Shown: positions 3,802 to 63,001 of the stretch, piece after piece
How positions within the stretch are numbered: the stretch's first letter is position 1
Layout: every line of letters begins with the position of its first letter
Assembly: GCA_937877455.1 (NCBI GenBank)
Contig: CALFIU010000189.1
Location: 28,852 to 92,851 of the forward strand
Origin: an uncultured Bacteroidales bacterium
Lineage (GTDB): Bacteria > Bacteroidota > Bacteroidia > Bacteroidales > UBA3824
DNA: 64,000 nt
Direction: 5' to 3'
Program-made: the position numbers and the translations under genes
The notes under the pieces: model-generated
Seen by the model: the letters and a program-made list of their open reading frames with translations, nothing else
The model's database searches: none
Told to the model about the DNA's origin: nothing

Positions 3802-3807
3802 AGATAG

Positions 3808-4735: not shown

Positions 4736-5935
4736 TCAAAGAAACTTGCCGACTTTCGTGACCTCTTCTTTGGTTTTATCTTCTAATATATGTGTGTAAG
4801 AGAGTGTGGTGCTGTAATTCGCATGTCCCATGATACTCTGAACAACAACAGGGTCTAACCCTTTTTCAAAACACCTTGTCGCAAATGTGTGTCTAAAACA
4901 ATGTGGATGAAGATGCCCGAATTCACGAGGTTTTCTTCCTTCACGATAAGCACGATTGCTTTCTTTCAGGATGATATTTGTCTCAACCTTCTTCAAATCA
5001 TGCACTATATTATATCTCGTGATAGGTGATCCCATCGTGGTTGTGAAAACCAAATCACCAAACTTTTCATCTGAACGCCAACGACTGCCGAGCTTCTGCC
5101 TGTATAAATCCTGCTTATTCTTCCATACTTTGAAGAGGTTTTCCGTATCATCAAAGAACGGAATAGAACGATACGAATTTGCTGTCTTTGGCGTAGTAAG
5201 CTCCATTATCTTTTTGCCATCCAGATAGGCAGTCATCATTGATCGTCTAATGTGAATGACTTTCTTTTCAAAATCTATATCATCCCACTGTAAACCAGAA
5301 AACTCACCAATCCTCATGCCAGTAACCAGAAGTATTCTATAAGGTTCATTATAATAACTGTCATTTACTTCTTCAAGAAAAACATCCTGTTCCCAATGGT
5401 TAAGAACTCTCCGCTCTTTCGCCATTTCGTTTCCTTCATGAACAGTAACGCCTCTGCATGGATTTACAGAAAGAATTTTGTTCACAATGGCAATGTCGAG
5501 ACACTCTCTGAGAACACTTAATGCTTCTTTTATACTTCTTGCATTATAATGTTCTACTTCATATAATTGAGTGGCAGCATCTTGAATATTCATCTGCGTG
5601 ACTTCTTCAATCCGCTTATCGCCCAATATCCTTATAAACGTGTTTCTGAGTTTCCTGTCATATGTTTTTCTGCTGACATCTGATTTCAGCTGCGGTGATT
5701 TACATTTTTCAAACCATTCATTGTACCATTCTTTTAGTTTTAAGTTTGGTCTAATACCCTTTTCATCTCTTAACACTCTTGCCTTTTCCATTTCAAAAGT
5801 TTTCTTTAGATTTGGAAGAGACATATCATAGATGTCGATTTTAACGCCGTTGATTTTCGCCCTTGCTTCATACCTCCCATCCGGGCGCTGACTAAATCCT
5901 TTTCCTAATTCTTTTCCTTTTAAGTCTTTTCCCAT
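4736..5935 (-). CDS. int: Tyrosine recombinase / phage integrase
   Basis: N-terminal SAM-like domain. Catalytic region contains LLVTGMRIGE ... HCFRHTFATRCFEKG ... MGHANYSTTLSYTH (R..HxxR..Y). AAGGAG RBS. Confidence 0.9.
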   Translation of the reverse strand: MGKDLKGKELGKGFSQRPDGRYEARAKINGVKIDIYDMSLPNLKKTFEMEKARVLRDEKGIRPNLKLKEWYNEWFEKCKSPQLKSDVSRKTYDRKLRNTFIRILGDKRIEEVTQMNIQDAATQLYEVEHYNARSIKEALSVLRECLDIAIVNKILSVNPCRGVTVHEGNEMAKERRVLNHWEQDVFLEEVNDSYYNEPYRILLVTGMRIGEFSGLQWDDIDFEKKVIHIRRSMMTAYLDGKKIMELTTPKTANSYRSIPFFDDTENLFKVWKNKQDLYRQKLGSRWRSDEKFGDLVFTTTMGSPITRYNIVHDLKKVETNIILKESNRAYREGRKPREFGHLHPHCFRHTFATRCFEKGLDPVVVQSIMGHANYSTTLSYTHILEDKTKEEVTKVGKFL

Positions 5936-25023: not shown

Positions 25024-25965
25024 TTAATGCGCATATTCGTCTGCTTCATGCAAAGCAACAACTTCATTAAATACTTTATCGCCAAGCTGTATCTTTAATC
25101 TCTTTTCGACACTCTTGCTCATCTTCCATTCACGATAAGGATGCATATGGAAATAAATCAAAGTCGCAACATGGATAATATCATCAACATGATAATCCAT
25201 ATTGTAAAGATAAAAGATTGAGTCATAAGCTCCTACACAATGATGTTGATAGTAATGGCAATTTCCATCTCTTTCACCTTTAGAATTTACAGCAGTCATT
25301 GTGAATATCTTTCCTTCATCGTGCAAAAGCGCCGCCAAATGAAGCAACTCATTTTTGGGATATTTCTCAAGGATATATTTTCCTGCTTTTCTACAATGCT
25401 CGCCAAGCGTTAAACTATGATGATGATTTCCCTGATCCATATAATCAATGCCTGTTGCGTGGTTATAAAGTGTTGCTAATGTATAATCGGCAAAATCTTC
25501 TCTCTGGCAACTAAACATGATATCTACATCATCCCATCCTTCAGTTTTGTGCGGAGGCTGAAAATTCATGTACATGCGCTTGATTACACTATCAGGAACT
25601 TTTCTTTCCCTTTTCTGATTATTAAGCAAACACACATAGTATGGTGCTACAACTAAAACACACGATTTATGGCAAGGAATATTTTTAAGTTCCTGAAGAA
25701 ACCCCATGCGCCTTTTTCTATTGAGATTTGTGGCATCGTAAATGACATCTTTACCATTCCTTAAATCTTCTTTGATGCGCCTATGTAATTCAGTGAAAAG
25801 CTGCGCGTTTGCTTCTTTTGAATTTTCATTTACATCACCAAACATTTCTTCACGAAGATCATCAGAAGAATGAAGCTGATAATATTTACTCAACGTTCTT
25901 GCATATGTAGACTTACCACTTCCGGGCAAACCTACAAGCATCATTAAAGTTGGTATATTGTTCAT
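25024..25965 (-). CDS. Polynucleotide kinase (P-loop) fused to an HD phosphohydrolase domain
   Basis: N-terminus LVGLPGSGKST...YDATNL (T4 Pnk / AAA_33-like kinase). C-terminus HHHS...LLHDEGK (HD). Confidence 0.75.
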   Translation of the reverse strand: MNNIPTLMMLVGLPGSGKSTYARTLSKYYQLHSSDDLREEMFGDVNENSKEANAQLFTELHRRIKEDLRNGKDVIYDATNLNRKRRMGFLQELKNIPCHKSCVLVVAPYYVCLLNNQKRERKVPDSVIKRMYMNFQPPHKTEGWDDVDIMFSCQREDFADYTLATLYNHATGIDYMDQGNHHHSLTLGEHCRKAGKYILEKYPKNELLHLAALLHDEGKIFTMTAVNSKGERDGNCHYYQHHCVGAYDSIFYLYNMDYHVDDIIHVATLIYFHMHPYREWKMSKSVEKRLKIQLGDKVFNEVVALHEADEYAH

Positions 25966-27332
25966 ATGGCATCCTCCACGATCAATTCTTCCGCTTCTTC
26001 CATGTCTGGCATGTCAGATGTATCTTTGATAATTCCTTCAAGACATTTAAAACTGAAGTTTTTATGTTTGTAAGCTGTAAAACTCGGTCTGTTATCAATT
26101 CTGATAACAACGCCTTCGCGAACATGTGTCTTACCAATCGGGTCTGCGCCATCATAGTATTTTTCGACACGCGCCATAAGATCATCCCATGTAGTAAAGA
26201 TAAACTTTTCAAATGTAGGAACACACTTAGCGCCCATCTTTTCGGCTTCAATTTGTACCTGTTCCCAAGGAAGTTCAACCATAATGCCATCTTCATTCAT
26301 CATTATCATGCGATAAACATATGCATCATTTTCTCCGACTTCACATCCGTAAGAGAACACGGTTTCTTTCCCGTACTGCTTCTGGAAATCTTTATCTTTC
26401 ACGAGCTTATTTGAACATTTGCCCATGATAGTCTGATTTCCTTCTGTATAGCCAACGACCTCATAGAACACTTCGCATCCTTTAGGAAGTTTGTCTTTGA
26501 AGAAATCATGATATTTCTGTCTGAATTTGTTACTTCCGTAGTAGCCACCGTCATACTCGCGCAATGTGGTTCTTCTTGTGCCAGTGATGTATTGATACTT
26601 TCTTGTCTGTTTATCGCGAAGTTTAAACAGTTTTTTCAGAATTGGGTTTCTTCTCTTCTTTGTAATCTGAAGTGTGTTGGCTGTCCTCTGGCTCGTGCCA
26701 TGCATCTTTAATGTGATGTAGCACGTATCGCCTTCTCTAAATGCGTTCTGATTAAATGCAAGCTGCTGTGTATCAATATGCTCAACGAATAAAGGATAAC
26801 TAACCGTTTCTTTTAATTCTTTCTTGTTTACCTTGTACTTGCTACCGCCAGAAGAATTGTTTCTCTTTCTCTTCGGAATATACTTTCTGCAAATCTCGTG
26901 ACCGTCAATTACAGAAATCATATCGCCATCTCTCAGTGTAGTTACATCGACATACTTTGAAAGCGTTTCAATCGGTAAAACTAATCCGTCAGACTTTTCG
27001 CCACGAAGTTTTAATGCCGTGATATTTCTTTTCTCGGCATCCATGTATCCACCGACATTTATAACATCAACGCCATCTTTCTGAATAATTTGCTTTCCTT
27101 CAATCTGTGCATCGTCAAGTTCGGAAACAGGAACGTATTTCTTGACAAGATTATTGTCTGTTGCAAATTCTTCACTCAGCTGCCCATCGACAGGGAAATA
27201 AATAACGCGCTGTCCTTCATGATAATTCAAATCAACAATAACATTATTCCCAAACACGCTCGTTGTGAGGAGTCTGTCTGCATTCGAGTGTTTATGTAAT
27301 TCCTTTAACGTAGTGACATATGCGAAATACAT
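25962..27332 (-). CDS. RNA ligase, DRB0094/DraRnl-like (N-terminal OB domain plus adenylyltransferase)
   Basis: N-terminus HSNADRLLTTSVFGNNVIV (OB module). Motif I is ITLKMHGTS (KxHG, as in the Rnl2/Rnl5 clade). Confidence 0.75.
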   Translation of the reverse strand: MYFAYVTTLKELHKHSNADRLLTTSVFGNNVIVDLNYHEGQRVIYFPVDGQLSEEFATDNNLVKKYVPVSELDDAQIEGKQIIQKDGVDVINVGGYMDAEKRNITALKLRGEKSDGLVLPIETLSKYVDVTTLRDGDMISVIDGHEICRKYIPKRKRNNSSGGSKYKVNKKELKETVSYPLFVEHIDTQQLAFNQNAFREGDTCYITLKMHGTSQRTANTLQITKKRRNPILKKLFKLRDKQTRKYQYITGTRRTTLREYDGGYYGSNKFRQKYHDFFKDKLPKGCEVFYEVVGYTEGNQTIMGKCSNKLVKDKDFQKQYGKETVFSYGCEVGENDAYVYRMIMMNEDGIMVELPWEQVQIEAEKMGAKCVPTFEKFIFTTWDDLMARVEKYYDGADPIGKTHVREGVVIRIDNRPSFTAYKHKNFSFKCLEGIIKDTSDMPDMEEAEELIVEDAI

Positions 27333-34348: not shown

Positions 34349-34414
34349 TTATCTTGCATTATCTATTATACCAAACATAAGATAGCTTGTCAATTACTAT
34401 CTTGTATTATTTCT
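34349..34414 (-). promoter_or_regulatory. Motif-bracketed promoter: AATAATACAAGATAG-N3-TTGACA-N17-TATAAT-N7-GCAAGATAA
   Basis: The minus strand reads GAAATAATACAAGATAGTAATTGACAAGCTATCTTATGTTTGGTATAATAGATAATGCAAGATAA. Confidence 0.7.
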
Positions 34415-35697
34415 TGATCTTCTTTCAGTTCTTGCGCCCAAGTTACAAGCCATTTATTTTTATTCTTGAATGGATCTCTCATCACTTCATCCAAAAGTAA
34501 ATGAAGTACATCGCCGATTTCCTTGCTTGGTTCATATCCAATTTCTATCAAATCATCGCCAGAAATATCCAACTTATCCAAGCTACAACAATCATTATTG
34601 CCGATAATGATTCCTGCGTCAACCTTCATCTGATTTATAAGTTTTAAAAACTTGAATTTATTGATTGGACTTGCGACCGTTGCTTTCGCCATCCAGTAAT
34701 CACACAGATTTTTCGTGTTTCTAAAACCTATCTCACTAATCAGTTTTCGTACTTCATATTTACGATCATCATACTTGAAGCTGATATGTTTATAATCTTC
34801 TTTATGCTTTAGAATATCGCAAATAAGTTTACTTCTTTGGTTATCCATGCGCATATCAGTCAAGATTTCTTTTGGATTATCCGTAAACTGTAGCAACAAT
34901 GCCATTCTTACAGCAAGTTCATCATCTTTATTTGTCGCCATCAAAGACTCGATAACTTCATGATGTTCAAATAAAGTTCCTGCGTTTTTCACGCTATCGT
35001 TAAAATATGGAGTAATACAGTAGAATAAATCAAGGCAATTATAAAGTGTCCTAAATGCACTCGGAAACTGTGTACTCATTATCTTACATGTTTCGGCGCA
35101 AATTCTTTCTTTGGATATGTTGCCAAGCAATTCACGATTATATTGCATAGACCAGAGAGTTTGATTTTCAATTCTAAATCCAAGTGTAATCGCAAATCTT
35201 AACCCACGCATTATGCGCAATCCATCTTCTTTAAACCTATCATCTGGATTACCAACGCACCGAATAACACCGTCTTGAATATCTTCTAATCCGTGGAATA
35301 AATCAACGATGCCTACATCTGGATTATACGCCATAGCATTGATCGTGAAGTCGCGCCTCTTCAAATCTTCTTCGAGTCTGTCAGTGAAATTTACGTCATC
35401 AGGATGCCGACCATCGCTATACGTTCCGTCTATTCTAAATGTCGTGATTTCATATGGTTTATCTTCTATCACTACAGTGACAGTACCATGTTTAATCCCT
35501 GTTTCAACTACTTTGTAATCCTGAAAAACTTTTTCTACAACTTCAGGTAATAATGCTGTGCATATATCCCAATCGTCAGGCTCTTTTCCGAGTATGTAAT
35601 CGCGAACGCAGCCACCAACCACATAGCCAATACTACCGTAGTCATTCAGTTTTTCTAATATAAATTCTACATTTTCAGGAAGGTGTATAATTCCCAT
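34390..35697 (-). CDS. cca: tRNA nucleotidyltransferase (CCA-adding enzyme / poly(A) polymerase family)
   Basis: Head-domain motif VGGCVRDYILG...DWDI and RDFTINA. Confidence 0.85.
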   Translation of the reverse strand: MGIIHLPENVEFILEKLNDYGSIGYVVGGCVRDYILGKEPDDWDICTALLPEVVEKVFQDYKVVETGIKHGTVTVVIEDKPYEITTFRIDGTYSDGRHPDDVNFTDRLEEDLKRRDFTINAMAYNPDVGIVDLFHGLEDIQDGVIRCVGNPDDRFKEDGLRIMRGLRFAITLGFRIENQTLWSMQYNRELLGNISKERICAETCKIMSTQFPSAFRTLYNCLDLFYCITPYFNDSVKNAGTLFEHHEVIESLMATNKDDELAVRMALLLQFTDNPKEILTDMRMDNQRSKLICDILKHKEDYKHISFKYDDRKYEVRKLISEIGFRNTKNLCDYWMAKATVASPINKFKFLKLINQMKVDAGIIIGNNDCCSLDKLDISGDDLIEIGYEPSKEIGDVLHLLLDEVMRDPFKNKNKWLVTWAQELKEDQEIIQDSN

Positions 35698-36721
35698 TTA
35701 ACACACTCCAATTCGCATCTGCGAGAAACTTGTTAATTCTATCGTAATCTGGATTAGGCGGTAAATCAGTATGTTCTTTTAAGTAATTCATTTTTGCTTC
35801 TAACTCATCTACCATTTCATAAAATTCTTTCGTTGGTTGTCTGTTATCATCAAGATACTTTCCGTTCCTGATATCCATAAGAAAATCGTGATCTTTAGCA
35901 CGATAAGTAATAATTTCACCACGCTCAAGAATATCGAAACACATCAAATAAAGTCGAACCAAATGCATCATGTGCTTTGATAATTTGTCGTGTTCTATAG
36001 CATGTTGATTGCGCTTTCCAAGTTTTGAATAATCCTTGACAATATTATTCATCTCAGACCACATGCATTTATAATCACGAAGCGGATAATGCTTTAATGA
36101 CACATCCATAAAAATTTCTGTATCATAGTCCTCTTGTTCTGACTTATCAATATACAGTCTAATTGCGTCCTCTGGATAATTGAAGTATTTTTCTGGATAA
36201 GAATATCGTGTGTTTTCAATACTTCCAAGAATATGTTCTTCACGTTTTGATTGTTCAACAAGTCTAACCGCCTTGTTATCGAGCCTTCGCGCTTGGGAAA
36301 CCGCATAACCTCCGAAAGAATGAACCGCCCTTTTTGAAAGAAACATATCCCTGTTATCAATCAACGCCTGACCAATATCGGAAACATACAAATACTGCCA
36401 CGGTTCTAATCCAAGGATCTCAATCGTATTGGGATTACAATTCGATAGCAAATTGATAATCTTTTCAAGAGAATATACCGTTGTATCAGTAGCTTCATTA
36501 ACAACCTGATCGAAACCTTTTCTTGTCAGAATATCTACTGCCGAATGTGTAGCGATTCCACGCACATCAAGATCGCTATTCTCGTTATTCGTGCCATATG
36601 CATGACTGCCGCCCAATCCAAGAAGAATAATATTCTCGCCTAACGGCTTTTCTCTCAGGAAACTATATTCATCCGATTCTACTTTGCGCTTAATCTCATC
36701 AATCGTCATACTTGTATTCAC
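35675..36721 (-). CDS. Pol-beta-fold nucleotidyltransferase, RlaP-like (RNA-repair-pathway family)
   Basis: LGLGGSHAYGTNNENSDLDVRG is an NTase motif, with a long helical C-terminus (recalled PF10127 pattern). Confidence 0.6.
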   Translation of the reverse strand: MNTSMTIDEIKRKVESDEYSFLREKPLGENIILLGLGGSHAYGTNNENSDLDVRGIATHSAVDILTRKGFDQVVNEATDTTVYSLEKIINLLSNCNPNTIEILGLEPWQYLYVSDIGQALIDNRDMFLSKRAVHSFGGYAVSQARRLDNKAVRLVEQSKREEHILGSIENTRYSYPEKYFNYPEDAIRLYIDKSEQEDYDTEIFMDVSLKHYPLRDYKCMWSEMNNIVKDYSKLGKRNQHAIEHDKLSKHMMHLVRLYLMCFDILERGEIITYRAKDHDFLMDIRNGKYLDDNRQPTKEFYEMVDELEAKMNYLKEHTDLPPNPDYDRINKFLADANWSVLNGNYTPS

Positions 36722-45477: not shown

Positions 45478-46100
45478 TCATCATACCTCTCTAATTTCTG
45501 TTCTTTTGTTTGCAATATAAACGATCTGTAATTTTCATAATCTGCGAATGTAATATACTTACCATTGATTACATCGAAACAGTTTTCATTTCTTGCTAAT
45601 TCATATCCATTCGCGCTGATTATAAAGTAAACATCTTTATTCTCTTCTGTTTCTATAACCAATGGAATAAGACTTTCTTTTATATCAATTACATTGTCAA
45701 TACTTAATCCGCTGTCAATAGCATCAAACAAGAACCATAGTTCTTTAGCATCTGGATTTTCCTGTGACATGCGCCCCATTTTTCTGGCTATATTTTCAAG
45801 AACGTTTACAATGTTTTCGCCTTCGCTACTCATCATTGTTCTTGCTACGATATCAAAACTTCCATAAAACGCAGCCTTACTTCTTAACTCTCTCTCGCCA
45901 TTCTGCATATTGCTATGAAACAGCACAGGAATATCTTTGTTTTTCAAACTTTGATTTATTTGCTTGAGCATCGTTGTTTTTCCTGCACCATTACATCCGA
46001 CAAGAACGGTTAATCCGGGGTTTATCTTTATCTGTTTCTTTTTGAAGATGGCGCAATCATCACCATACCAGTCATTAGATAATCTAAACTGTCTGCTCAT
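45474..46100 (-). CDS. Compact ABC-type ATPase
   Basis: Walker A GCNGAGKTT, signature-like SSEGE, and Walker B LFDAIDSG. Confidence 0.6.
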   Translation of the reverse strand: MSRQFRLSNDWYGDDCAIFKKKQIKINPGLTVLVGCNGAGKTTMLKQINQSLKNKDIPVLFHSNMQNGERELRSKAAFYGSFDIVARTMMSSEGENIVNVLENIARKMGRMSQENPDAKELWFLFDAIDSGLSIDNVIDIKESLIPLVIETEENKDVYFIISANGYELARNENCFDVINGKYITFADYENYRSFILQTKEQKLERYDE

Positions 46101-46552
46101 ACCAATATACCATCAAGAATACTGCTTACAAGTTTGCCATCTGCTTTACCTTTAACCTTCGGCATAAGCTCTTTCATAATGATACCTTTACTTTTCTTTG
46201 TTGCTGGATTATCAGAAGTAAAGCCAAGAGATAACATGACCTCTTCAATAACGGCTCTGATCTGTGTTTCATCCATCAATTCAGGAGCAAACTTCTTTAG
46301 TATTTCTATCCTTCTCTTGCATTGTTCGATAATATCCGTCCTATCTTCGGGACACATGTCTAACGTTTCCTGTGTCTGTCTGATTTCCTTATAGACAACA
46401 GCATTCTCTTCATCTTCCGTAAGCTCACGTTGTTTATCAATTTCCGCATTCTTTAACGCAGAAAGAAGCAATGAAAGCGTATCTTTTGTTTCTTGGTCAT
46501 GAGCTTTCATTGCGTCAATCATGCACATTCTTACATAATCTTCTTTCTTCAT
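46097..46552 (-). CDS. GatB/YqeY-domain protein
   Basis: AMKAHDQETKDTLSLLLSALKNAEI ... KGKADGKLVSSIL matches the YqeY pattern. Confidence 0.8.
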   Translation of the reverse strand: MKKEDYVRMCMIDAMKAHDQETKDTLSLLLSALKNAEIDKQRELTEDEENAVVYKEIRQTQETLDMCPEDRTDIIEQCKRRIEILKKFAPELMDETQIRAVIEEVMLSLGFTSDNPATKKSKGIIMKELMPKVKGKADGKLVSSILDGILV

Positions 46553-47268: not shown

Positions 47269-47303
47269 GATTTTTCCTCCATGTTCTTTGTTTTTAGTGG
47301 CAG

Positions 47304-47384
47304 TGCGGATGAAGGGATTCGAACCCTTACGCCTTTCGACATTAGTTCCTAAGACTAACGTGGCTGCCGTTACACCACATCCGC
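47304..47384 (-). tRNA. tRNA-Leu (anticodon TAG), class II
   Basis: Folds by hand as GCGGATG/CATCCGC acceptor, anticodon arm TTAGT-CTTAGGA-ACTAA, a 13-nt variable arm, and T arm AAGGG-TTCGAAT-CCCTT. Confidence 0.85.
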
Positions 47385-47389
47385 ATTTA

Positions 47390-47483
47390 CAAGGCGCATT
47401 TGTTGTTTGGTGTCCTTGTCGGACAAAAAGATAATTCCCATAATCATCGCTTGTTAAACATTTACGATTGCTGTATGCGCCTT
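47390..47483 (-). ncRNA. ACAGCAA-box structured RNA, stand-alone copy (closing helix AAGGCGCAT/ATGCGCCTT)
   Basis: The 9-bp closing helix encloses AU-ACAGCAAU, an ATCG...CGAT hairpin and a GTCC-GACAA-GGAC hairpin. Confidence 0.6.
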
Positions 47484-47515
47484 TCGTGCTATAATAACAA
47501 CCCTTTACAGGGTAA

Positions 47516-47588
47516 TAGAAGGAGAAGGAGTCGAACCTTCCGCAGCTGCTTTATAAGAACAGCCCCATCGCCGCTTGGGTATCCTTCC
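47516..47588 (-). tRNA. tRNA-Ile (anticodon TAT)
   Basis: GGAAGGA/TCCTTCT acceptor (G1-U72), anticodon arm CTGTT-CTTATAA-AGCAG, and T arm GAAGG-TTCGACT-CCTTC. Confidence 0.75.
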
Positions 47589-47936
47589 AAACATAATCAA
47601 TACCAATTCTCCTCGTCAATAATTACTCAATCACCGAAACACTGTTAGTTGGTTTGCGTTGCCTTCTTCACCGAATGGCTACTTAATCCACATCCACGCC
47701 TCATTATCGGCGATTTGAATTGATATTGATTTGTCCGTATTGACTCGTCCTGTTTTCAGCCCCAACAGTCAGACCACCATCACGCACGATAGGCAGAACC
47801 AATCAACCGATACTCGTACACTGTTGCGTTTTATAGTATATTAGTAAATCTGGTGCGTCAGTCATCATAAGTGAATAAGTATATATCATTTCAACTTATT
47901 CCATCCTTGTCTACGGATGTTTTACTTATTTCTGAT
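47589..47936 (-). ncRNA. ORF-free, relatively GC-richer ~350-nt segment inside the tRNA array; candidate large structured RNA
   Basis: No minus-strand ORF. Several local and long-range complementarities, including CATCC..GGATG, GAATAAGT..ACTTATTC and CAACAGT..ACTGTTG. Confidence 0.3.
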
Positions 47937-48017
47937 TGCGGTGATTAGGATTCGAACCTATACCTCGCCCACGTTTCCCATGTCTACAGGCGTATGCTGC
48001 CTCTTACAACACACCGC
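47937..48017 (-). tRNA. Aberrant tRNA-like gene (normal acceptor and T arm, enlarged ~15-nt anticodon loop)
   Basis: GCGGTGT/TCACCGC acceptor and T arm ATAGG-TTCGAAT-CCTAA. The stem CGCC(TG)/(TG)GGCG closes the loop TAGACATGGGAAACG. Confidence 0.45.
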
Positions 48018-48151
48018 TTTTCAGTTATTCCATACCTTTGCATTTGTCCTATGGTTAGCTACACCATCGCCACCCTCACACTATTGCTAATCTTTCCCTC
48101 GATGCTATTCTTTGGATAACCTTTCTGAATTATTCGCGATATAATTCATAG

Positions 48152-48233
48152 TGCGGATAAAGGGATTTGCACCCTTACGCCATTCGGCATGGAATTTTAA
48201 GTTCCACATGTCTGCTTGTTCCATCATATCCGC
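48152..48233 (-). tRNA. tRNA-Leu (anticodon TAA), class II
   Basis: GCGGATA/TATCCGC acceptor, anticodon arm TGGAA-CTTAAAA-TTCCA, a long variable arm, and T arm AAGGG-TGCAAAT-CCCTT. Confidence 0.85.
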
Positions 48234-49004
48234 TTATATGGTGTTCCATTCATAGTCTGATATTCTTTTTATTTCAGAAGAATGATATGGCAAGTTATAT
48301 GATTTGCACCATTTTCTTATAGAATTGTCACTAACACCATAATTTTTCCCAATTTGTAAAAATGAATGATGTCTAATCATGTGCTTTAAGACATCTCTTT
48401 CTGGCTTTTTGCTTATGGCACTATATCTCTTTTTAACTTCACACGATTTACATCTTTTTGCATGTCTACTTATTTCTTTTCCACAATCGGCACAATAATT
48501 TTTAGAATCAATTTTATTTCCTATATGACTATCATGATTCGTAACGACATGTTCATATTTTCTTTTTGCACGACCACGATAGTTATCTGTTAACGCGTGG
48601 CAATTTGGACACAAAACCTTTAAGTTGCTCAAATTATTATTAAAATGATTTCCGTCTACATGATGGAGTTCAAGAGGAATCTGAACACCTTGCCAATATT
48701 CTAAACCGCAATTTTCACATTTCATATTTTTGATACCTTCTTTAATCAATCTATTTTTTAATGAAAGTGATTTAATTGGTTTTTCGTTATTCAAGAAAAT
48801 TTCAATTGGCAATTGTTTCCTATTACAACTATAACCTTTATGTGATTTATTTCCTTCATAATTAATACCAAGCACATTTAAATACTTGTTTAATGTCGTT
48901 GATTTACATGAAAGCTCTCTGCAAATATATTGTTTAGACCTATTTTCTGAAATCCATTTTAAAATATCATCTTTTCTTTCTAATATATCCTTTCTTTGTT
49001 TCAT
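48234..49004 (-). CDS. HNH homing endonuclease embedded in the tRNA array
   Basis: CENCG...LELHHVDGNHFNNNLSNLKVLCPNCH plus C-terminal HTH-like repeats. Its stop codon abuts the tRNA-Leu(TAA) 5' end. Confidence 0.8.
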   Translation of the reverse strand: MKQRKDILERKDDILKWISENRSKQYICRELSCKSTTLNKYLNVLGINYEGNKSHKGYSCNRKQLPIEIFLNNEKPIKSLSLKNRLIKEGIKNMKCENCGLEYWQGVQIPLELHHVDGNHFNNNLSNLKVLCPNCHALTDNYRGRAKRKYEHVVTNHDSHIGNKIDSKNYCADCGKEISRHAKRCKSCEVKKRYSAISKKPERDVLKHMIRHHSFLQIGKNYGVSDNSIRKWCKSYNLPYHSSEIKRISDYEWNTI

Positions 49005-49194: not shown

Positions 49195-49320
49195 CGGCGA
49201 GGACAGGACTCGAACCTGCGACCTACGGCGTTTAAGGCATAATATTAAAATTGCTGTGTGTATCTTAACAAGATACGTTGTTTGTTTTTACGTTGCTCTA
49301 ACCGACTGGGCTACCTCGCC
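49195..49320 (-). tRNA. tRNA body (Asn-like GTT stem-loop) with extra sequence on both sides of the anticodon hairpin
   Basis: Has the GGCGAGG/CCTCGCC acceptor, U8A9, D arm GCCC-AGTCGGTTA-GAGC and T arm GCAGG-TTCGAGT-CCTGT. The centre is A/C-rich linker, then GTATC-TTGTTAA-GATAC, then ACACAGCAAU plus 26 nt. Confidence 0.6.
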
Positions 49321-49387
49321 GACATAGTGGATATGGCATGGAATAATCCAAGGTAAGAACCCATATCCACTTTACATATGAGTGTTC

Positions 49388-49438
49388 TAAGCGCTTATAC
49401 CCTTATCTGCTAATGGTTATAATTGCTGTTGGCGCTTA
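49388..49438 (-). ncRNA. ACAGCAA-box structured RNA, stand-alone copy (helix TAAGCGC/GCGCTTA)
   Basis: The closing helix, the CA-ACAGCAA box and a second helix TTATAACC/GGGTATAA with a 12-nt loop. Confidence 0.55.
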
Positions 49439-49447
49439 AATTTATAT

Positions 49448-50947
49448 TTACAGTAATCCTTCTACAGCTTCTCTTACTTTCGCATAGCGTTCTCCATTCA
49501 GCGTTTCAAGAAGAACTTTGTAAGGATCGACCTGATTGCTCATGAACATCTTCAGAATTTGAACCGAAAATCCACTGCAAAGAATAAGTCCCATGTCATT
49601 CTGTTGCATCGGAATTGTTCCGTTTAATCTACCACTTAAATTCCAGAAACAAATCCTCGGAAGTTTATATCCTGCATCCTCAAACTCCTGCGCAATTTCG
49701 TCAAACAGGCTCTTGTTAAGATTATGAGAATGACCGTCAAACTGCATGTCAGAACAAATCACAATCATCTTTGGCATATCTTCCGCAGAAGTATGATTTC
49801 TTTTTGCTGTTTTCAGGATTAGCATCATAGTCTTATAGATGTCTGTATTTGAACAATCTGACTCGCGCAAGGAAAGATCGATTTTATCTGCAAGCGAATA
49901 ACAATTCGACAGATCGACAATCTTCGGATTGGACGAAAAAGTGACGAACTTATTTTTCCAATCACCTGTATTATGTTCGGACATATAGATTGCAAGCGCG
50001 GTTGCTACATCCAAAGGTGTACCACTTCCTGCAAAACTTCCCCATGTCATAGAACCAGAACCATCACGAACAATCAGTGTGTTCTCTACAGACAAGTCAG
50101 GAAGAGCTTTCCATAGTGCTTCGAGCGTTGCGTCATTTCTGCATCTATTCTGGCGATACTTCAGGCAGATCTCGTGAGGATTAAGTGTACTTGCGTTAAT
50201 CTTTACAGTTCCTTTTTCAAGTGATGCAAGATATTCGCGTCTACGATCTTCATCGTTACGGAGAAACGCGCCGTTGTATATCAGATTAGCCTTAGAAGGC
50301 ACAGACTCGTAATTGATTTTATCCCACTTTTTAGCACTCATCTTGACTTCGACAACATCAAGATATTTTCTAAGTTTGGACAAAGTCTTTCTGTACTTCT
50401 TTTCTGTCCATCCAAGTTCACGGCAAATCAGTTTTGCTCTATCAACTGTTATCTTGGATGATGCATTAACACTCGGCATCCACTTCGCGCACAACGAAAT
50501 CGACTTGCCTTCTTTCATGTTCGCTTTATCTTCTTTCAGCTGCGCCTTGATTAAAGCGATTGCCTTTCCTCTCGTTCTTTCATCATCGAGCATAACCATG
50601 ACGCTATCCCAACGATTATAGAACGGAATAAGATCAACAATAGCTTTTGCAATTTTCGGCTGTTTCTCTGCAAGATAACTTAAACCAGCTCTGAAAGCTT
50701 TTCTCTCGCCAAGCCCTTCACGGACATCGCCAAGATAGAAAAGATATTCAAGTGCAGTCAGCTTATCCTCGAAGAAAACCTTCATGAAATCTTCCTTGAT
50801 TGCTTCGGGAAATCTGTTTCGCATAGCGGATACGCCAAAGTTGAAATCAAGAAGTTTCTTTCCTGCTGTCGCATAAGCGATCGCGCCGTTTGTGGTTACT
50901 GATTTTTGAGTGTTCAATTCATTTTGCATTTCATCGAAGAAACTCAT
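49448..50947 (-). CDS. Ro60-like TROVE/vWA protein (DUF2828-type)
   Basis: N-terminus TTNGAIAYATAG..LLDF...LFYLGDVREGLGERKAF (TROVE/DUF2828-like). C-terminal vWA MIDAS motif RDGSGSM. Confidence 0.65.
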   Translation of the reverse strand: MSFFDEMQNELNTQKSVTTNGAIAYATAGKKLLDFNFGVSAMRNRFPEAIKEDFMKVFFEDKLTALEYLFYLGDVREGLGERKAFRAGLSYLAEKQPKIAKAIVDLIPFYNRWDSVMVMLDDERTRGKAIALIKAQLKEDKANMKEGKSISLCAKWMPSVNASSKITVDRAKLICRELGWTEKKYRKTLSKLRKYLDVVEVKMSAKKWDKINYESVPSKANLIYNGAFLRNDEDRRREYLASLEKGTVKINASTLNPHEICLKYRQNRCRNDATLEALWKALPDLSVENTLIVRDGSGSMTWGSFAGSGTPLDVATALAIYMSEHNTGDWKNKFVTFSSNPKIVDLSNCYSLADKIDLSLRESDCSNTDIYKTMMLILKTAKRNHTSAEDMPKMIVICSDMQFDGHSHNLNKSLFDEIAQEFEDAGYKLPRICFWNLSGRLNGTIPMQQNDMGLILCSGFSVQILKMFMSNQVDPYKVLLETLNGERYAKVREAVEGLL

Positions 50948-50987
50948 AATTGCTTTACCTCTCTCTTCTTAGTTTGTGGTTGCAATT

Positions 50988-51053
50988 CAAGGCACTGGTT
51001 TTGGTTGTAAGATTAAAAGTCTTATCCATAATTGTGGTTGCTGTATGTGCCTT
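50988..51053 (-). ncRNA. T-arm-less mini tRNA-like RNA displaying a Lys(UUU) anticodon stem-loop (ACAGCAA-box family)
   Basis: Reads AAGGCAC-AU-ACAGCAACCACAATTATGGA-[TAAGA-CTTTTAA-TCTTA]-CAACCAAAACCA-GTGCCTT-G. Confidence 0.6.
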
Positions 51054-51061
51054 AAATATAT

Positions 51062-51178
51062 AGCGCACGATTGGATTCGAACCAATGACACGATTTTTTG
51101 TTTGTTTAATTGCTGATTGCGATTATCACTAACCACGTTTAACAAGTTAAATTGCACTACCAACTGTGCTACGTGCGC
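51062..51178 (-). tRNA. tRNA body with ~50-nt insertion in the anticodon loop region
   Basis: Has the GCGCACG/CGTGCGC acceptor, U8A9, D arm GCAC-AGTTGGTA-GTGC and T arm ATTGG-TTCGAAT-CCAAT. The insert carries AU-CAGCAAU. Confidence 0.6.
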
Positions 51179-51193
51179 CATCCCTTTCGGGAA

Positions 51194-51349
51194 AAGCAGC
51201 GACAGGAATCGAACCTATGACTGCGGCTTGCCTCGGTAAATTTGCTGTATGTTTCTTTAATTCCCCAACTCTAACTCGTCTGTGCGGTTACTCTTGGTGG
51301 TAACAAGAAACATTTTTATGCCGCCGTGATCCCACTTCACTACGCCACT
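51194..51349 (-). tRNA. tRNA body with ~85-nt insertion inside the anticodon loop
   Basis: Reads AGTGGCG-UA-GTGA-AGTGGGA-TCAC-G-GCGGC[92 nt]GCCGC-AGTC-ATAGG-TTCGATT-CCTGT-CGCTGCT-T. The insert holds the GTTTCTT...AAGAAAC helix and AU-ACAGCAA. Confidence 0.7.
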
Positions 51350-51352
51350 TCG

Positions 51353-51476
51353 CCCATCGTGAAGGATTCGAACCTTCCCCTCAAGTTTTCCAGACTTGTA
51401 ATTGATATGTAATATTGCTGCAAGCGCTTCACTAAACGCACAATCAAAAGATGTGCTACCGCTACACCAACGATGG
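51353..51476 (-). tRNA. tRNA body with ~53-nt insertion between the D arm and the anticodon arm
   Basis: Has the CCATCGT/ACGATGG acceptor, D arm GTGT-AGCGGTA-GCAC, anticodon arm CAAGT-CTGGAAA-ACTTG and T arm GAAGG-TTCGAAT-CCTTC. The insert holds the hairpin GCGTTT-AGTG-AAGCGC followed by UU-GCAGCAAU. Confidence 0.6.
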
Positions 51477-51491
51477 GATATTTAATTTTTA

Positions 51492-51558
51492 CAAGACACT
51501 GAAATGGTAATATAAGTTAACAGCTTATTCCTCTTTCATTTATTGCTGTTTGTGTCTT
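51492..51558 (-). ncRNA. T-arm-less mini tRNA-like RNA displaying an Asn(GUU) anticodon stem-loop (ACAGCAA-box family)
   Basis: Reads AAGACAC-AA-ACAGCAATAAATGAAAGAGGA-[ATAAG-CTGTTAA-CTTAT]-ATTACCATTTCA-GTGTCTT-G. Confidence 0.6.
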
Positions 51559-51570
51559 TCATTTTTAACA

Positions 51571-51661
51571 CAAGGCACTTTATTTTGATGGACTTGAACC
51601 ATCTCGCAAAGACTTACAATGTATTTACTTTATCCGATGTTAAGTTTGCTGTATGTGCCTT
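51571..51661 (-). ncRNA. ACAGCAA-box RNA with a canonical T arm (Y-RNA/tRNA-like hybrid)
   Basis: Reads AAGGCAC-AU-ACAGCAA..., then TAAAG[16-nt loop]CTTTG, then GATGG-TTCAAGT-CCATC, then AAAATAAA-GTGCCTT-G. Confidence 0.55.
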
Positions 51662-51666
51662 TCTTG

Positions 51667-51732
51667 TTATCTTGCAATACCTATTATAGCATGCCGTTTA
51701 TGGTTTTGCAAGTGTTATTTTGTATTATTTCT
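51667..51732 (-). promoter_or_regulatory. Motif-bracketed promoter inside the RNA array: AATAATACAAAATAA-N3-TTGCAA-N17-TATAAT-N7-GCAAGATAA
   Basis: The minus strand reads GAAATAATACAAAATAACACTTGCAAAACCATAAACGGCATGCTATAATAGGTATTGCAAGATAA. Confidence 0.7.
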
Positions 51733-51765
51733 AATACTTTTTGAATGTCAACAACAACGGCAACG

Positions 51766-51838
51766 TGCGCCAGATGGGATTTGAACCCATGACTTTTCGA
51801 TTAAAAGTCGAATACTCTACCATCTGAGTTACTGGCGC
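51766..51838 (-). tRNA. tRNA-Lys (anticodon TTT)
   Basis: GCGCCAG/CTGGCGC acceptor, D arm ACTC-AGATGGTA-GAGT, anticodon arm TTCGA-CTTTTAA-TCGAA, and T arm ATGGG-TTCAAAT-CCCAT. Confidence 0.9.
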
Positions 51839-51842
51839 TTAA

Positions 51843-51913
51843 CAACCCCTGATGGAGTCGAACCATCACATACAGGGTCAAAGCCTGTTTCGCTACCGTT
51901 ACGATAAGGGGCT
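51843..51913 (-). tRNA. tRNA-Gln (anticodon TTG)
   Basis: AGCCCCT/AGGGGTT acceptor, anticodon arm ACAGG-CTTTGAC-CCTGT, and T arm GATGG-TTCGACT-CCATC. Confidence 0.8.
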
Positions 51914-52042
51914 AAAAAGTATTGCGTTTGTCGAAAGTTTATGTTATCATATATGAGCCATCATTAGTTTGATGTGCTTTGTGTATGTGGTAGGGAGTTG
52001 GCTTTAAGCCTTCTCCCTATCTTTATTTCCTTCAACTCTTAT

Positions 52043-52095: not shown

Positions 52096-52470
52096 TTAAT
52101 CACAGTACCCTGTTATAAGCTCGATCCCATATTTATTAAGAACCTTTTCAACTGCATCCCAATAGTATCTTCCACAATCTTCGTTATCTATAACGAATAC
52201 GTTCTCATATTTCTTATCATTTGTATTAACAGTCCAATAACACACTTCGTAAGGTTCATCTACATATTCTTTAATTCTGAAGTGACCGATTCCGTCGCCG
52301 CTAACATCAGACCAGTCATATTCATCATAATCGTCATCGCGCCAATGTTTAGCTTCTTCGTTCGCCATTTCCAGAAGAATATCGAGTAACCGTCCGTGTG
52401 TCACTTTATCTCTGGAAATAATGAAACTACTTGAGCTACTATTCGTCACAAAATCTTTTCTAATTTTCAT
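52096..52470 (-). CDS. Ser-tract family paralog C (start reassigned to MKIRKDFVTNSSSSSF)
   Basis: Shares the invariant N-terminus with 53096-53563 and 53560-53991. Confidence 0.55.
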   Translation of the reverse strand: MKIRKDFVTNSSSSSFIISRDKVTHGRLLDILLEMANEEAKHWRDDDYDEYDWSDVSGDGIGHFRIKEYVDEPYEVCYWTVNTNDKKYENVFVIDNEDCGRYYWDAVEKVLNKYGIELITGYCD

Positions 52471-53083
52471 TCTTTTCCACCATAGTATCAATAATATAAT
52501 AAAACGATTGATATATAAGTATCCCCCCAATAGCATTAAATAAAATATTTAACAGTAAATATCTAAGTACATTCAAATTGAATAATCCAGCAACAGAAAA
52601 ATAAAACACGTTTGCTATGCAATGTTCAAATCCGCAAAATACGAAGATAGAAGTTGCCATCCATAGAATAATTGTTCTAAATATATGCGAAACATTCTCG
52701 TTCTTAAATGTATCAACGGCAATAAAGAGCAAGACATTACACATAATAGCAAGAGGAATAATTTCCCATCCCTCGGTGAGTTTGCTTCTGCAAATTTCCA
52801 TCGCACTAACAATTAGTGTTGGCTTGGCATATCCGAAAACAATTCCCATAAGTGTTGCACCAACAATATTTCCAAAAAGAATTAAAATCAATTTTGGTAT
52901 GCCAGATATCCCGGCGATATATGGCGCTTTTCCTGTAAACAAATTTAAATGATACGCGCAAACAATCAGTAATCCTATAGGGAATAATAAAGCTTGTTTA
53001 GTACACAGGTAAGCTATTGCTCCGATAGATATTGCCACTCCTGCCCATATAGAACTTATAAATATTTCTAGTTTATCTTTCAT
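52460..53083 (-). CDS. Formate/nitrite transporter (FNT)-like membrane protein
   Basis: Six hydrophobic segments. CGFEHCIANVFYF resembles the FNT signature GFEHSIANM. Confidence 0.5.
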   Translation of the reverse strand: MKDKLEIFISSIWAGVAISIGAIAYLCTKQALLFPIGLLIVCAYHLNLFTGKAPYIAGISGIPKLILILFGNIVGATLMGIVFGYAKPTLIVSAMEICRSKLTEGWEIIPLAIMCNVLLFIAVDTFKNENVSHIFRTIILWMATSIFVFCGFEHCIANVFYFSVAGLFNLNVLRYLLLNILFNAIGGILIYQSFYYIIDTMVEKNEN

Positions 53084-53095
53084 TAAACCCCTCCA

Positions 53096-53563
53096 TTAAT
53101 GATGGCTGAACCGTTGGATAGTGCAATCAAGCCTCGGCATAACTTCATGCTCAAGATCTCCGTCTACATGATCGCTATATTCAACCAAAGAAAGATATTC
53201 TAAACCTTCTATCTTCTGTTTAAATTCCGAAAACCATACATTTACCCTTTCTTTCACAGCGTTTTCAAATGCGGTTTTGTTTTCTGGCGCTTCAATCCAA
53301 TTATAAAATTCGCGCCATCCGAGTTTTCTTTCATATTCACGTTCAATAATAAATCGCGCATCCCAATACATTTCATCCTTAAATATATGCAGCGCTTCAT
53401 CTTTTGAAATATGGTTTTTCAAAATATCTTTAAGAACACGGTCGAAATTTCTACCGATATATAATTCGTTGCCGAGTTGTTCTTTTACATCATCTTTTGA
53501 TTTAAACCCTACGATGAAGCTACTGCTGCTTGAATTGGTCACATAATCCGTTCTGATTCTCAT
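53096..53563 (-). CDS. Ser-tract family paralog B (MRIRTDYVTNSSSSSF...)
   Basis: Conserved N-terminal 16-mer. 4-nt overlap with paralog A. Confidence 0.55.
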   Translation of the reverse strand: MRIRTDYVTNSSSSSFIVGFKSKDDVKEQLGNELYIGRNFDRVLKDILKNHISKDEALHIFKDEMYWDARFIIEREYERKLGWREFYNWIEAPENKTAFENAVKERVNVWFSEFKQKIEGLEYLSLVEYSDHVDGDLEHEVMPRLDCTIQRFSHH

Positions 53564-53991
53564 TCATGTTCTCCTAACAATACGACAAAATCATCTGACT
53601 CTAACTCATAAAATAAATCTTCTCGATAGTCACCATATCCCACATTTTTAGTTAAAATTTTATATCCTTCTTCCATCTTTTTAACGCACTTTTTGTAAAT
53701 ACTTCTAACCCAAGAATCCTCTTTGCATAATTCTTCAAATGTTCTGTAGCCATATCCATAACTCTCGAATAAATGTCGGCGCAAATCTATCAAGTTTTCA
53801 AAAACTTCTGTTTCTGTTGTTTCATATGACGCGCTATTATTTCCAAAAATTGCATCCTTCACAATTTTCTGATAAGATTCAAGAAATGGATATTTTGTTA
53901 TTGTGTCCTCATCAATATTAGGTAATCCTTTGAACGCAATAACAAAACTGCTACTACTCGAATTAGTTACAAAGTCATTTCTGATTTTCAT
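53560..53991 (-). CDS. Ser-tract family paralog A (MKIRNDFVTNSSSSSF...)
   Basis: Conserved N-terminal 16-mer. Confidence 0.55.
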   Translation of the reverse strand: MKIRNDFVTNSSSSSFVIAFKGLPNIDEDTITKYPFLESYQKIVKDAIFGNNSASYETTETEVFENLIDLRRHLFESYGYGYRTFEELCKEDSWVRSIYKKCVKKMEEGYKILTKNVGYGDYREDLFYELESDDFVVLLGEHE

Positions 53992-62005: not shown

Positions 62006-63001
62006 TTAAGATGCGGACACAAAAGGCATAAGAACCTTTTTCAATGTGGTTACATTCTGCTCGACAACGCCATATTGTTCCGCGAGAGCCATAATCTTTT
62101 TCGTATCTTCTGAATTCCTAACAGACATAATAAGCCTATCTGTTTCTTCCTGACCGACTTCTCTGACTACAAAATCATAAAACCCACGGAGATAAAGTGT
62201 CCTCGCGTTGATGTTAATATCAAGCTTATTCTTTATGTCACGATTAAAAATTCTACTGATATGTCCAGCCCAATACTCTGGTGGTCTTTCGTTAAATTCC
62301 TTTTCAAACTTCGCCCTTGTTGGAAATTTGAAATACGATCCACGATAGCTCATCATTAGATAACTGCCACGATGCGCAGGATATTCTTCCATGTGGTTTA
62401 TCTTGACCATCAATTCATATAATCTGTCTGATAATCGTATCTCGCGCCCTCTGACAATAGTAGTTTTCTTTTTGTGATTAACATCTCCTTCTTTAAGATT
62501 AACTATGTCTATAGCTTCAGGAAATCCCTCATAGAACATGCGGATAATCGCTTCTTGATAATCCGCGTACTCGTCTATCTGGCTATTCCTAATTCTTTCT
62601 ATGGCTTCTTCCATAGCATTTTTGTCAAATATCTGATCGCCATCAACAAATAAAGACATAACATTTCTGCCTTTAATTCTTTTATCATTACAAGGATTTT
62701 TAATCACCTCATAATTATCAATGTACCAGTTGAAAAAGTCACGAAGGATAGATAATAAAGTATCATATGTGCGATAGGAGATTTTGTATACTTTATTTGA
62801 ATAAGTTTTATTGCTGAATGTCTTTATCATTTCAGTGATCTCTTGTGATTCCATATCAACAAGAGGTTTTCCTATCTTTTGCTCGTAAGCGTATAATTCA
62901 GGTCTATCTATTTGACCGCGAATTTTTCGTGCCGTTGTTTCGGGTCTTGTCTTAAAATATTCATCCAATAATCGATCTGTATCGAATGTTCCCCTTGCCA
63001 T
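62006..63001 (-). CDS. Hypothetical protein (start reassigned to MARGTFD)
   Basis: An AAGGAGG RBS lies 9 nt upstream of the internal ATG. Confidence 0.5.
   Translation of the reverse strand: MARGTFDTDRLLDEYFKTRPETTARKIRGQIDRPELYAYEQKIGKPLVDMESQEITEMIKTFSNKTYSNKVYKISYRTYDTLLSILRDFFNWYIDNYEVIKNPCNDKRIKGRNVMSLFVDGDQIFDKNAMEEAIERIRNSQIDEYADYQEAIIRMFYEGFPEAIDIVNLKEGDVNHKKKTTIVRGREIRLSDRLYELMVKINHMEEYPAHRGSYLMMSYRGSYFKFPTRAKFEKEFNERPPEYWAGHISRIFNRDIKNKLDININARTLYLRGFYDFVVREVGQEETDRLIMSVRNSEDTKKIMALAEQYGVVEQNVTTLKKVLMPFVSAS

Follow-up and report, generated by a model that had tools for sequence, protein, structure and literature searches.

We analysed a 64,000-nucleotide stretch of contig CALFIU010000189.1 from an uncultured Bacteroidales bacterium (hereafter the window), in which an open reading frame (ORF) encoding a 499-residue protein (49448-50947, minus strand) lies inside an array of tRNA genes and small structured RNAs. 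The ORF has an ATG start codon preceded by a GAGAGG ribosome-binding site, and the peptides quoted in an initial annotation of this DNA (VTTNGAIAYATAG, GDVREGLGERKAF and RDGSGSM) are all present in it, identical and at exactly this position. That annotation had proposed a Ro60-like protein, combining a TROVE/DUF2828-like N-terminus with a von Willebrand factor A (vWA) domain, that might form a phage Ro60/Y-RNA-type ribonucleoprotein with a new class of RNA partner. Comparative genomics supports such a particle, in which the protein would bind the RNAs through a shared stem-plus-ACAGCAA module.

The N-terminal two thirds of the protein, a helical-repeat region, matched DUF2828 (PF11443; E = 3e-35, 122.2 bits against a cut-off of 29), and residues 290-473 matched DUF7788 (PF25043), a vWA-type domain (E = 1e-40, 139.9 bits against a cut-off of 27.1), with a further, weak Pfam match to VWA_2. 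Both families were matched by all 31 aligned homologues. The hidden Markov model search suggested in the initial annotation returned DUF2828 strongly, together with DUF7788. The metal ion-dependent adhesion site (MIDAS) pointed out there was likewise borne out, as its residues D295, S297, S299, T368 and D400 (DxSxS...T...D) are invariant across the 31 homologues. T18, N20, D74, R76, E81, R82, K155, W156, R186 and R235-R236 are further invariant residues. The protein was also assigned to PHROG 850 ('RNA-binding protein', E = 8e-123), while no NCBIfam model matched it. Structure prediction pointed in the direction that had been expected: when an alignment-based AlphaFold2 model (predicted local distance difference test 81, predicted template modelling score 0.73) was compared with the PDB using Foldseek, the best five matches were all full-length Ro60/TROVE proteins (9kop, 2i91_A, 9nep_A, 9nf8_A and 1yvp_B; E = 2e-8 to 3e-6, template modelling score 0.52-0.56, 500-577 aligned columns), and matches ranked below them cover the vWA domain alone. 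The top match, 9kop ('Trove domain'), may be phiRo60 of Thermus phage phiLo. Sequence identity between the DUF2828 family and these PDB matches is 16% or less. The model makes a Ro60-like fold very probable, and its best explanation is a predicted ring in which the DUF2828 helical repeats are closed by the vWA/MIDAS domain.

Ordinary tRNAs called by ARAGORN, all on the minus strand, bound the RNA cluster at both ends, with tRNA-Gln(UUG) and tRNA-Lys(UUU) at its head (51765-51914; genes at 51842-51914 and 51765-51838) and tRNA-Leu(UAA) (48151-48233), tRNA-Ile(UAU) (47515-47589) and tRNA-Leu(UAG) (47303-47384) at its tail. The gene thus sits, as initially described, within a tRNA-like RNA array, flanked by nine same-strand RNAs that we call box RNAs. 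The pattern AAGRCRC, 1-3 nucleotides (nt), (A/G/U)CAGCAA occurs in nine copies on the minus strand between 47468 and 51652, within 4.3 kb and outside the coding sequence, and exact ACAGCAA occurs 20 times in the window versus 10.3 +/- 3.2 times in shuffled sequences. The underlying module is a covarying helix of 7-11 base pairs (bp) with a conserved outer end (AAG paired with CUU, then G), the purine-rich strand of which runs on, after 1-3 nt, into single-stranded ACAGCAA. In the five E-type RNAs (E1, E2, E6, E7 and E9), AAGRCRC pairs with a downstream GYGYCUU, closing an RNA of 55-93 nt with the box single-stranded immediately inside the closing helix. The four T-type RNAs (T3, T4, T5 and T8) are outlined like a true tRNA: their acceptor stem is 7 bp long, a D arm is present, and the T arm contains GGUUCGAAUCC. 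The anticodon arm gives way to a hairpin GNNNCUU-GNNA-AAGNNNC with the box directly after it. The helix is the same in both types, capped by a tetraloop in the T-type and opened at that loop in the E-type, which accounts for the conserved A before AAG and G after CUU. Of the initial description of these RNAs, 'ends paired, with tRNA-like arms inside', the paired ends hold for the five E-types and fail for the four T-types, which have ordinary tRNA topology; arms inside paired ends amount in the window to at most one T-arm-like hairpin, and the full layout is found in phage Tsamsa, in Felixounavirus and in a mycobacteriophage (see below).

Among the E-types, scored with the covariance model R1 described below, E1 (51572-51661) has the stem AAGGCAC/GUGCCUU and the box AUACAGCAA (39.6 bits, E = 3e-5), and its interior holds the T-arm-like hairpin GAUGG-UUCAAGU-CCAUC. 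E2 (51493-51558; 38.7 bits) has the stem AAGACAC/GUGUCUU and an internal hairpin with the anticodon-like loop CUGUUAA; its orthologue in L004, an 83%-identical relative, carries the compensated stem AAGACGC/GCGUCUU. E6 (50985-51057; 42.1 bits, E = 9e-6), with an 11-bp stem and an internal hairpin loop CUUUUAA, has its 3' end 38 nt ahead of the start codon, and E7 (49386-49440; 40.0 bits as a training sequence) begins 8 nt past the stop codon. E9 (47391-47483; stem AAGGCGCAU/AUGCGCCUU; 35.9 bits, E = 1.5e-4) lies between tRNA-Ile and tRNA-Leu. Among the T-types, T3 (51352-51477) is a partial tRNA match of 25 bits with acceptor, D arm and T arm, in which the anticodon-arm position is taken by the hairpin GCGUUU-AGUG-AAGCGC followed by GCAGCAA, and T4 (51194-51349, bounds assigned by reading the sequence) has a long hairpin AUGUUUCUU...AAGAAACAU followed by ACAGCAA, between the strands of a GCGGC/GCCGC stem. 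In T5 (51062-51178; Rfam tRNA 45.8 bits with a 46-nt insert) a hairpin and UCAGCAA stand instead of the anticodon arm, and in T8 (49195-49320; 44.4 bits with a 63-nt insert) that position holds the hairpin GUAUCUU-GUUA-AAGAUAC and then ACACAGCAA; GAGCAACGUAAAA is common to T8 and its counterpart in cyanophage B23. All nine, like the gene, lie on the minus strand. By consensus match alone, sigma-70-like promoters were seen 5' of the array (TTGACA-16-AATAAT, 51724-51751, minus strand) and directly 5' of E1 (TTGCAA-17-TG-TATAAT with an extended -10, 51683-51711, minus strand), and because they were found solely upstream of E1, the box RNAs and the DUF2828 gene probably form one transcription unit.

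Covariation demonstrates the RNA structures. When 16 T-type RNAs taken from eleven loci were folded jointly with RNAalifold, the consensus recovered the acceptor, D, box-hairpin and T helices and lacked an anticodon arm; compensatory changes affect 21 of its 23 pairs. For 16 positional orthologues of E7, RNAalifold gave a 7-bp stem in which 7 of 7 pairs are compensated and none broken, a count made on elements picked with a pairing-demanding descriptor; pairing in slid-partner controls reached only 24-52%. The training set of R1 comprised 16 elements lying just past the stop codon in related loci, E7 being the only member from the window. Its scores for E6, E7, E1, E2 and E9 ranged from 35.9 to 42.1 bits (E = 9e-6 to 1.5e-4), and the next-best match across 64 kb scored 17.6 bits. 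Rfam 15 has no family for the box module and no match for the E-type elements. We weighed whether the T-types are simply intron-containing or decayed tRNA genes and the E-types miniature inverted-repeat mobile elements. T5 and T8 do score above the Rfam tRNA (RF00005) gathering threshold with large inserts, the E-type ends are inverted repeats, and a gene for a homing HNH endonuclease lies within the array. The two tRNA scores, however, are reached solely by skipping 46-63 nt, ARAGORN called no tRNA for any of T3-T8, and no anticodon stem-loop could be recovered, and the T-type insert contains the same conserved module as the free elements. Moreover, the stems vary between copies and orthologues by compensatory change, unlike copies of one repeat, the strand bias is strict, and conservation of the elements extends from cyanophage to phages of Firmicutes. 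We rejected this explanation, which we regard as extremely improbable.

Linkage between gene and RNA was assessed at 30 independent homologue loci, from metagenomes and IMG/VR (close and middle-distance relatives) and from deposited phages of Enterococcus, Bacillus, Synechococcus, E. coli, Mycobacterium, Listeria, Campylobacter, Staphylococcus, Vibrio and Fusobacterium. Elements were called by a simple descriptor: 7 bp or more of closing stem and, 1-4 nt past its 5' strand, CAGCAA. At least one box element lay on the gene strand at all 30 loci, 28 of them found by the descriptor and two by eye (Vibrio phage R10Z and L031, each with an element in the 5' leader), so that the proposed pairing of protein and RNA class survived the co-occurrence check named in the initial annotation. 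Over all loci the descriptor called 110 elements on the same strand as the gene and 15 on the opposite strand; within 2 kb of the gene these counts were 101 and 4. At most loci one element ends 13-50 nt 5' of the ATG and another begins 8-50 nt past the stop codon, and box elements also occur where no tRNA is near, namely in Fusobacterium phage Fnu1 (L015), L031, the Vibrio leader and Staphylococcus. The linkage spans phages of Firmicutes, Proteobacteria, Actinobacteria, Cyanobacteria, Campylobacter and Fusobacterium (at least six bacterial phyla). On ten distant loci that had not been used for training, R1 gave 17 matches at E <= 1, all 17 on the gene strand, reaching phages of Bacillus, Enterococcus, Listeria, Campylobacter, E. 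coli and Fusobacterium although trained on relatives of the window. We therefore hold it highly likely that these elements are genuine structured RNAs and that they are genetically linked to the DUF2828 gene.

Many related loci, as well as E2 and E6, contain an E-type subclass with an internal hairpin of 4-5 bp, the stems of which covary between loci and the 7-nt loops of which are canonical anticodon loops (CUGUUAA, CUUUUAA, CUGCUAA and CUUGAAA). Among 156 seven-nt loops, 52 fit U33 plus a purine at position 37, versus 19.8 +/- 4.3 in shuffles. One further descriptor match in the window (62649-62828, minus strand), with an 11-bp stem GAUAAAGACAU/AUGUCUUUAUC... followed by UCAGCAA and a span of 180 nt, had no R1 support and was left out; it may be a chance match or a divergent long element.

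In the reverse direction, IMG/VR was scanned for the exact pattern AAGACACNNACAGCAA. Where a match also had the closing GUGUCUU, the examined flanking DNA contained a DUF2828 homologue for 19 out of 44, without exception on the same strand; among stem-less matches one was nearby in 2 of 79. The stem-bearing matches that lack the gene lie mostly in arrays of at least 20 tRNA genes or in truncated loci, and five of six such loci inspected closely contain 4-7 further R1 matches on the tRNA strand, the sixth being L040, with four tRNAs. These loci cover 7-13 kb of contigs of 100-195 kb, and absence of the gene refers to that stretch only. L040, an IMG/VR GVMAG contig, has three box elements at 1-800 (R1 34.6-37.7 bits) alternating with tRNA genes; the contig encodes a major capsid protein of nucleocytoplasmic large DNA viruses, and its examined part has no DUF2828 gene. 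As DUF2828-fold proteins also occur in giant viruses (see below), the box-RNA/DUF2828 system may reach giant viruses of eukaryotes.

The same loci bear on a different account, in which the box elements would punctuate viral tRNA operons as processing, stability or folding signals for a host RNase or another phage factor. The DUF2828 protein would then simply be carried along often in tRNA clusters and have an activity of its own, such as inhibiting a host defence protein through its vWA/MIDAS domain. The elements are indeed interleaved with tRNAs, several to an array, and occur at loci without DUF2828 in the examined DNA, including the giant-virus contig; yet an element stands at the start and/or stop of the gene even where no tRNA is near, and the gene-less loci are short compared with their contigs of 100-195 kb, so that the gene may sit outside them. 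That gp130 of phage Bas63 acts against the Ppl defence without phage RNAs also suits a protein working by itself. By contrast, the invariant 7-nt single strand persists in hosts whose RNase repertoires differ widely, and a YrlA-like architecture recurs in three lineages. The phage T5 tRNA region (NC_005859; 20 kb, 25 tRNAs, eight stable RNAs), which has no annotated DUF2828 gene and served as a negative control, contains no box element, the best R1 score there being 12.4 bits on the wrong strand. On balance we consider this account unlikely.

Several results nevertheless weigh against a Ro60-like protein partnered by these RNAs. The box-element loci without DUF2828 in the examined 7-13 kb are the main weakness of the linkage and, because they are many, the RNA could belong to the tRNA arrays and not to the protein. 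The covariation count was made on elements chosen with a descriptor that requires pairing. At the sequence level, Pfam TROVE (PF05731) gave no match at E <= 10 to the 499-residue protein or its 31 homologues, and neither phmmer with the protein nor a search with the family profile retrieved a PDB chain. It is thus the fold search, and that search only, that links the DUF2828 family to Ro60; of the TROVE/DUF2828-like N-terminus initially proposed, DUF2828 and the Ro60 fold stand and a Pfam TROVE assignment does not. Given a Ro60 fold match with no TROVE signal in the sequence, the protein is a Ro60-fold member of a separate, remotely related family and not, by sequence, a Ro60 orthologue. The docking motif differs too, being AAGRCRC-N-ACAGCAA here and GNCGAA/GGUCCGA in Ro60-binding RNAs, so that the analogy with Ro60 rests on fold and gene order. 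In addition, Bas63 gp130 counters Ppl alone, whether expressed from a plasmid or inserted in T7 (PMC11482910), and therefore at least the anti-Ppl activity needs no phage RNA. Finally, the RNAs CKA15_059-061 near a Listeria family member were ruled out as box elements, as they are boxless and have no R1 match.

A narrower role for the module was considered in light of Vibrio phage R10Z, where the box element (L014 3964-4006) is the 5' leader of the DUF2828 mRNA. Because it holds the Shine-Dalgarno sequence in its loop and its stem 3' strand overlaps the start codon, this leader suggests translational autoregulation. By extension, the protein might bind the module mainly as a cis-acting operator, autoregulating its own mRNA and perhaps the maturation of the surrounding precursor, with no stable trans-acting particles. 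Such an operator would agree with the R10Z leader and with the elements that bracket the coding sequence within tens of nucleotides at most loci. It sits badly, however, with loci that hold as many as 9-10 copies, many lying well away from the gene, and with four copies embedded in tRNA-shaped RNAs that have acceptor ends of their own; tRNA-like effector domains would be unnecessary for an operator. We accordingly give this explanation a very low likelihood.

We favour a scheme in which the DUF2828 ring protein would be co-transcribed with an array of small box RNAs, each carrying the same docking module, and would bind that module in the way Ro60/Rsr recognises the conserved Y-RNA stem. From the fold, the gene order and the Y-RNA precedent we infer, with somewhat more belief than doubt, that the protein docks on the helix-plus-ACAGCAA module, and the box RNAs are probably its hitherto undescribed partners. 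The remainder of each RNA would be the displayed part, which in the four T-types would be a tRNA body minus the anticodon arm and in the five E-types one or more small hairpins, some copying an anticodon loop. The particle would then present tRNA-like surfaces to tRNA-recognising proteins. As for its clients and biological role, we infer as candidates phage and host processing and repair enzymes, exonucleases such as polynucleotide phosphorylase (PNPase) and host tRNA-targeting defence nucleases, and a function that may lie in tRNA surveillance or anti-defence. With module copies abutting its start and stop codons, the protein may also regulate its own mRNA.

A bolder version, which we rate as decidedly unlikely, would make the system one of tRNA decoys held on a Ro-like ring, with two kinds of bait on one ACAGCAA dock and a range from phages to giant viruses. 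T-type and YrlA-type RNAs would show the acceptor/T/D body, and the E-type subclass would show the anticodon loops CU-GUU-AA (Asn), CU-UUU-AA (Lys), and CU-GCU-AA and CU-UGA-AA (Ser), so that host defence nucleases directed at tRNA, or tRNA-modifying enzymes, would be soaked up or misled by the particle. The preferred scheme of a ring protein docked on box RNAs matters because one member of the DUF2828 family is an experimentally shown counter-defence protein, and any RNA partners of the family had previously only been guessed. A searchable module that travels with the gene across phyla makes that guess directly testable and may point to a role for some of the 'stable RNAs of unknown function' found among phage tRNAs. 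If the scheme is true, there would be a second, independent protein-RNA recognition code in the Ro60/Y-RNA world.

Elsewhere in the window, on the minus strand, lie genes for a Pnk-like kinase (25024-25965) and an RNA ligase (25962-27332), and for a CCA-adding enzyme (34390-35697) with an adjoining RlaP nucleotidyltransferase (35675-36721); a YqeY protein is encoded at 46097-46552. No CCA is encoded in the tRNAs or T-type RNAs of the window. The DUF2828 homologue of Listeria phage LMTA-34 is followed, 1.3 kb downstream, by an RtcB gene. The repair and maturation gene pairs, 13-24 kb from the DUF2828 gene, fit a setting of tRNA repair or surveillance, although a link that rests on their presence at that distance proves nothing. 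Three paralogous small ORFs (52096-52536, 53096-53563 and 53560-53991, minus strand) share the N-terminal motif (R/K)xD(F/Y)VTNSSSSSF. A tyrosine integrase (4736-5935, minus strand; Phage_integrase, E = 3e-26) is encoded in a genome that otherwise resembles a large virulent-type phage, with its own DNA polymerase III alpha subunit, DnaB/DnaG and NrdD.

Within the array itself, an HNH endonuclease ORF (48234-49004, minus strand) separates T8 from tRNA-Leu; because in L004 T8 leads directly to tRNA-Leu without it, the ORF looks like a recent homing-endonuclease insertion. Between E7 and T8 (49325-49371, minus strand), a boxless 11-bp hairpin GUGGAUAUGGG...CCAUAUCCAC (-20 kcal/mol) is kept with changes in L004. 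About 330 nt of conserved non-coding sequence lie between tRNA-Ile and the next element (47600-48080, minus strand; also L004 7230-7630), and beside this stretch a weak tRNA match (47937-48017, 20 bits), with a perfect T arm and no clear acceptor stem, may be a further structured RNA. The same array in L004 includes a transfer-messenger RNA (tmRNA; 3671-3980, 101.7 bits), unlike the array of the window, in which no tmRNA was found, and another relative has a 'drum' RNA (RF02958; L017 7121-7230, 78.5 bits).

Members of the DUF2828/DUF7788 family occur in 711 phage genomes, from many host genera, out of about 50,700 deposited, and those in metagenomes fall into 6,458 clusters at 50% identity; DUF2828-fold proteins of the giant viruses Pithovirus, Marseillevirus, CroV and Mimiviridae are close structural relatives. 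The searchable literature yielded no phage work under the name 'DUF2828', and a text search for the ACAGCAA box returned primer matches only. Mycobacteriophage members are nonetheless already annotated as 'Ro-like RNA binding protein', and the general idea of Y-RNA partners has been floated for two members (PMC11482910, PMC12282133). The first, Bas63 gp130, is a Ro60-like protein encoded upstream of tRNA genes that counters Ppl, and its authors speculated that some annotated tRNA genes are Y RNAs (2024 preprint, PMC11482910). It is 34% identical to the window protein over 477 residues (E = 2e-79), and four box elements, one of them YrlA-like, lie between the annotated tRNAs of the stretch directly downstream of its gene, where that report describes none. 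The second, CKA15_055 of a Listeria phage, was detected in virions; HHpred ranks Rsr first among its matches, and abundant non-coding RNAs proposed as Y RNAs are encoded upstream of its gene (2025, PMC12282133). It too belongs to the family, through Listeria Pecentumvirus matches, and three box elements fill the unannotated gap directly upstream of it. The RNAs CKA15_059-061, reported at up to 67% of phage transcripts, lie 1.2-1.5 kb upstream of CKA15_055 (L155 1470-1780) behind a strong TTGACA-17-TATAGT promoter, and are a different, unexplained abundant non-coding RNA near the same gene.

Other small phage RNAs resemble the box RNAs in part. The stable RNAs of phage T5 (RNA1, RNA2, RNA3 and others, NC_005859) are likewise small and interleaved with tRNAs, and some are tRNA-like, but none matches the box model. 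The closest protein precedent is phiRo60 of Thermus phage phiLo, a canonical Ro60 homologue that binds the adjacent RNAs Yrl1 and Yrl2, found via a CGAA motif, and forms a ternary complex with host PNPase (PMC12135203). The window shares with it a phage Ro60-fold protein and adjacent small RNAs, binding in the window being a prediction, and differs in that the DUF2828 family has another RNA module, one that is undefined in PMC11482910, PMC12282133 and PMC12135203.

The likeness extends to bacterial Ro60/Rsr with YrlA and YrlB, which have a ring-plus-vWA/MIDAS fold, adjacent same-strand small RNAs whose 5' and 3' ends form a stem with a conserved motif, one long tRNA-like RNA plus shorter ones, and RNA repair and tRNA genes in the vicinity. 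In YrlA, paired ends surround a permuted tRNA-like domain (Chen et al. 2014, PMC4201824). Phages Tsamsa (Bacillus), LinBro and Bas63 (Felixounavirus) and Snenia (mycobacteriophage) each have one box element per locus (in order of locus number, L002 2236-2358, L009 6391-6516, L010 5539-5666 and L034 8782-8910) that encloses such a domain, with T arm, loop-closed acceptor-like stem and D arm in permuted order between the box and the 3' strand, and their remaining elements are short, like YrlB. The Rfam YrlA model (RF02553, gathering score 69), whose consensus has a stem of the GNCGAA type and no ACAGCAA, did not match the Tsamsa element and gave 39.3 bits on the Snenia element, where it fits the tRNA-like part alone, with the Rsr-binding stem columns mismatched; in the window it reached 23.3 bits, below the gathering score, across the T4/T5 junction. 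The window departs from the YrlA layout, in that its E-types have paired ends without a tRNA body and its T-types have open acceptor ends; the tRNA-like RNAs of the window and of cyanophage B23 keep normal tRNA topology, with the docking module at the anticodon arm, whereas YrlA is permuted. DUF2828 loci also carry up to 9-10 RNAs each, unlike Ro60/Rsr loci. The effector half of the box RNAs is thus shared or convergent with YrlA and the docking half is different, which matches a protein that shares the Ro60 fold and not its sequence. We would classify the system as a divergent ring protein with a probable RNA recognition module of its own, common across phages and perhaps extending to giant viruses.

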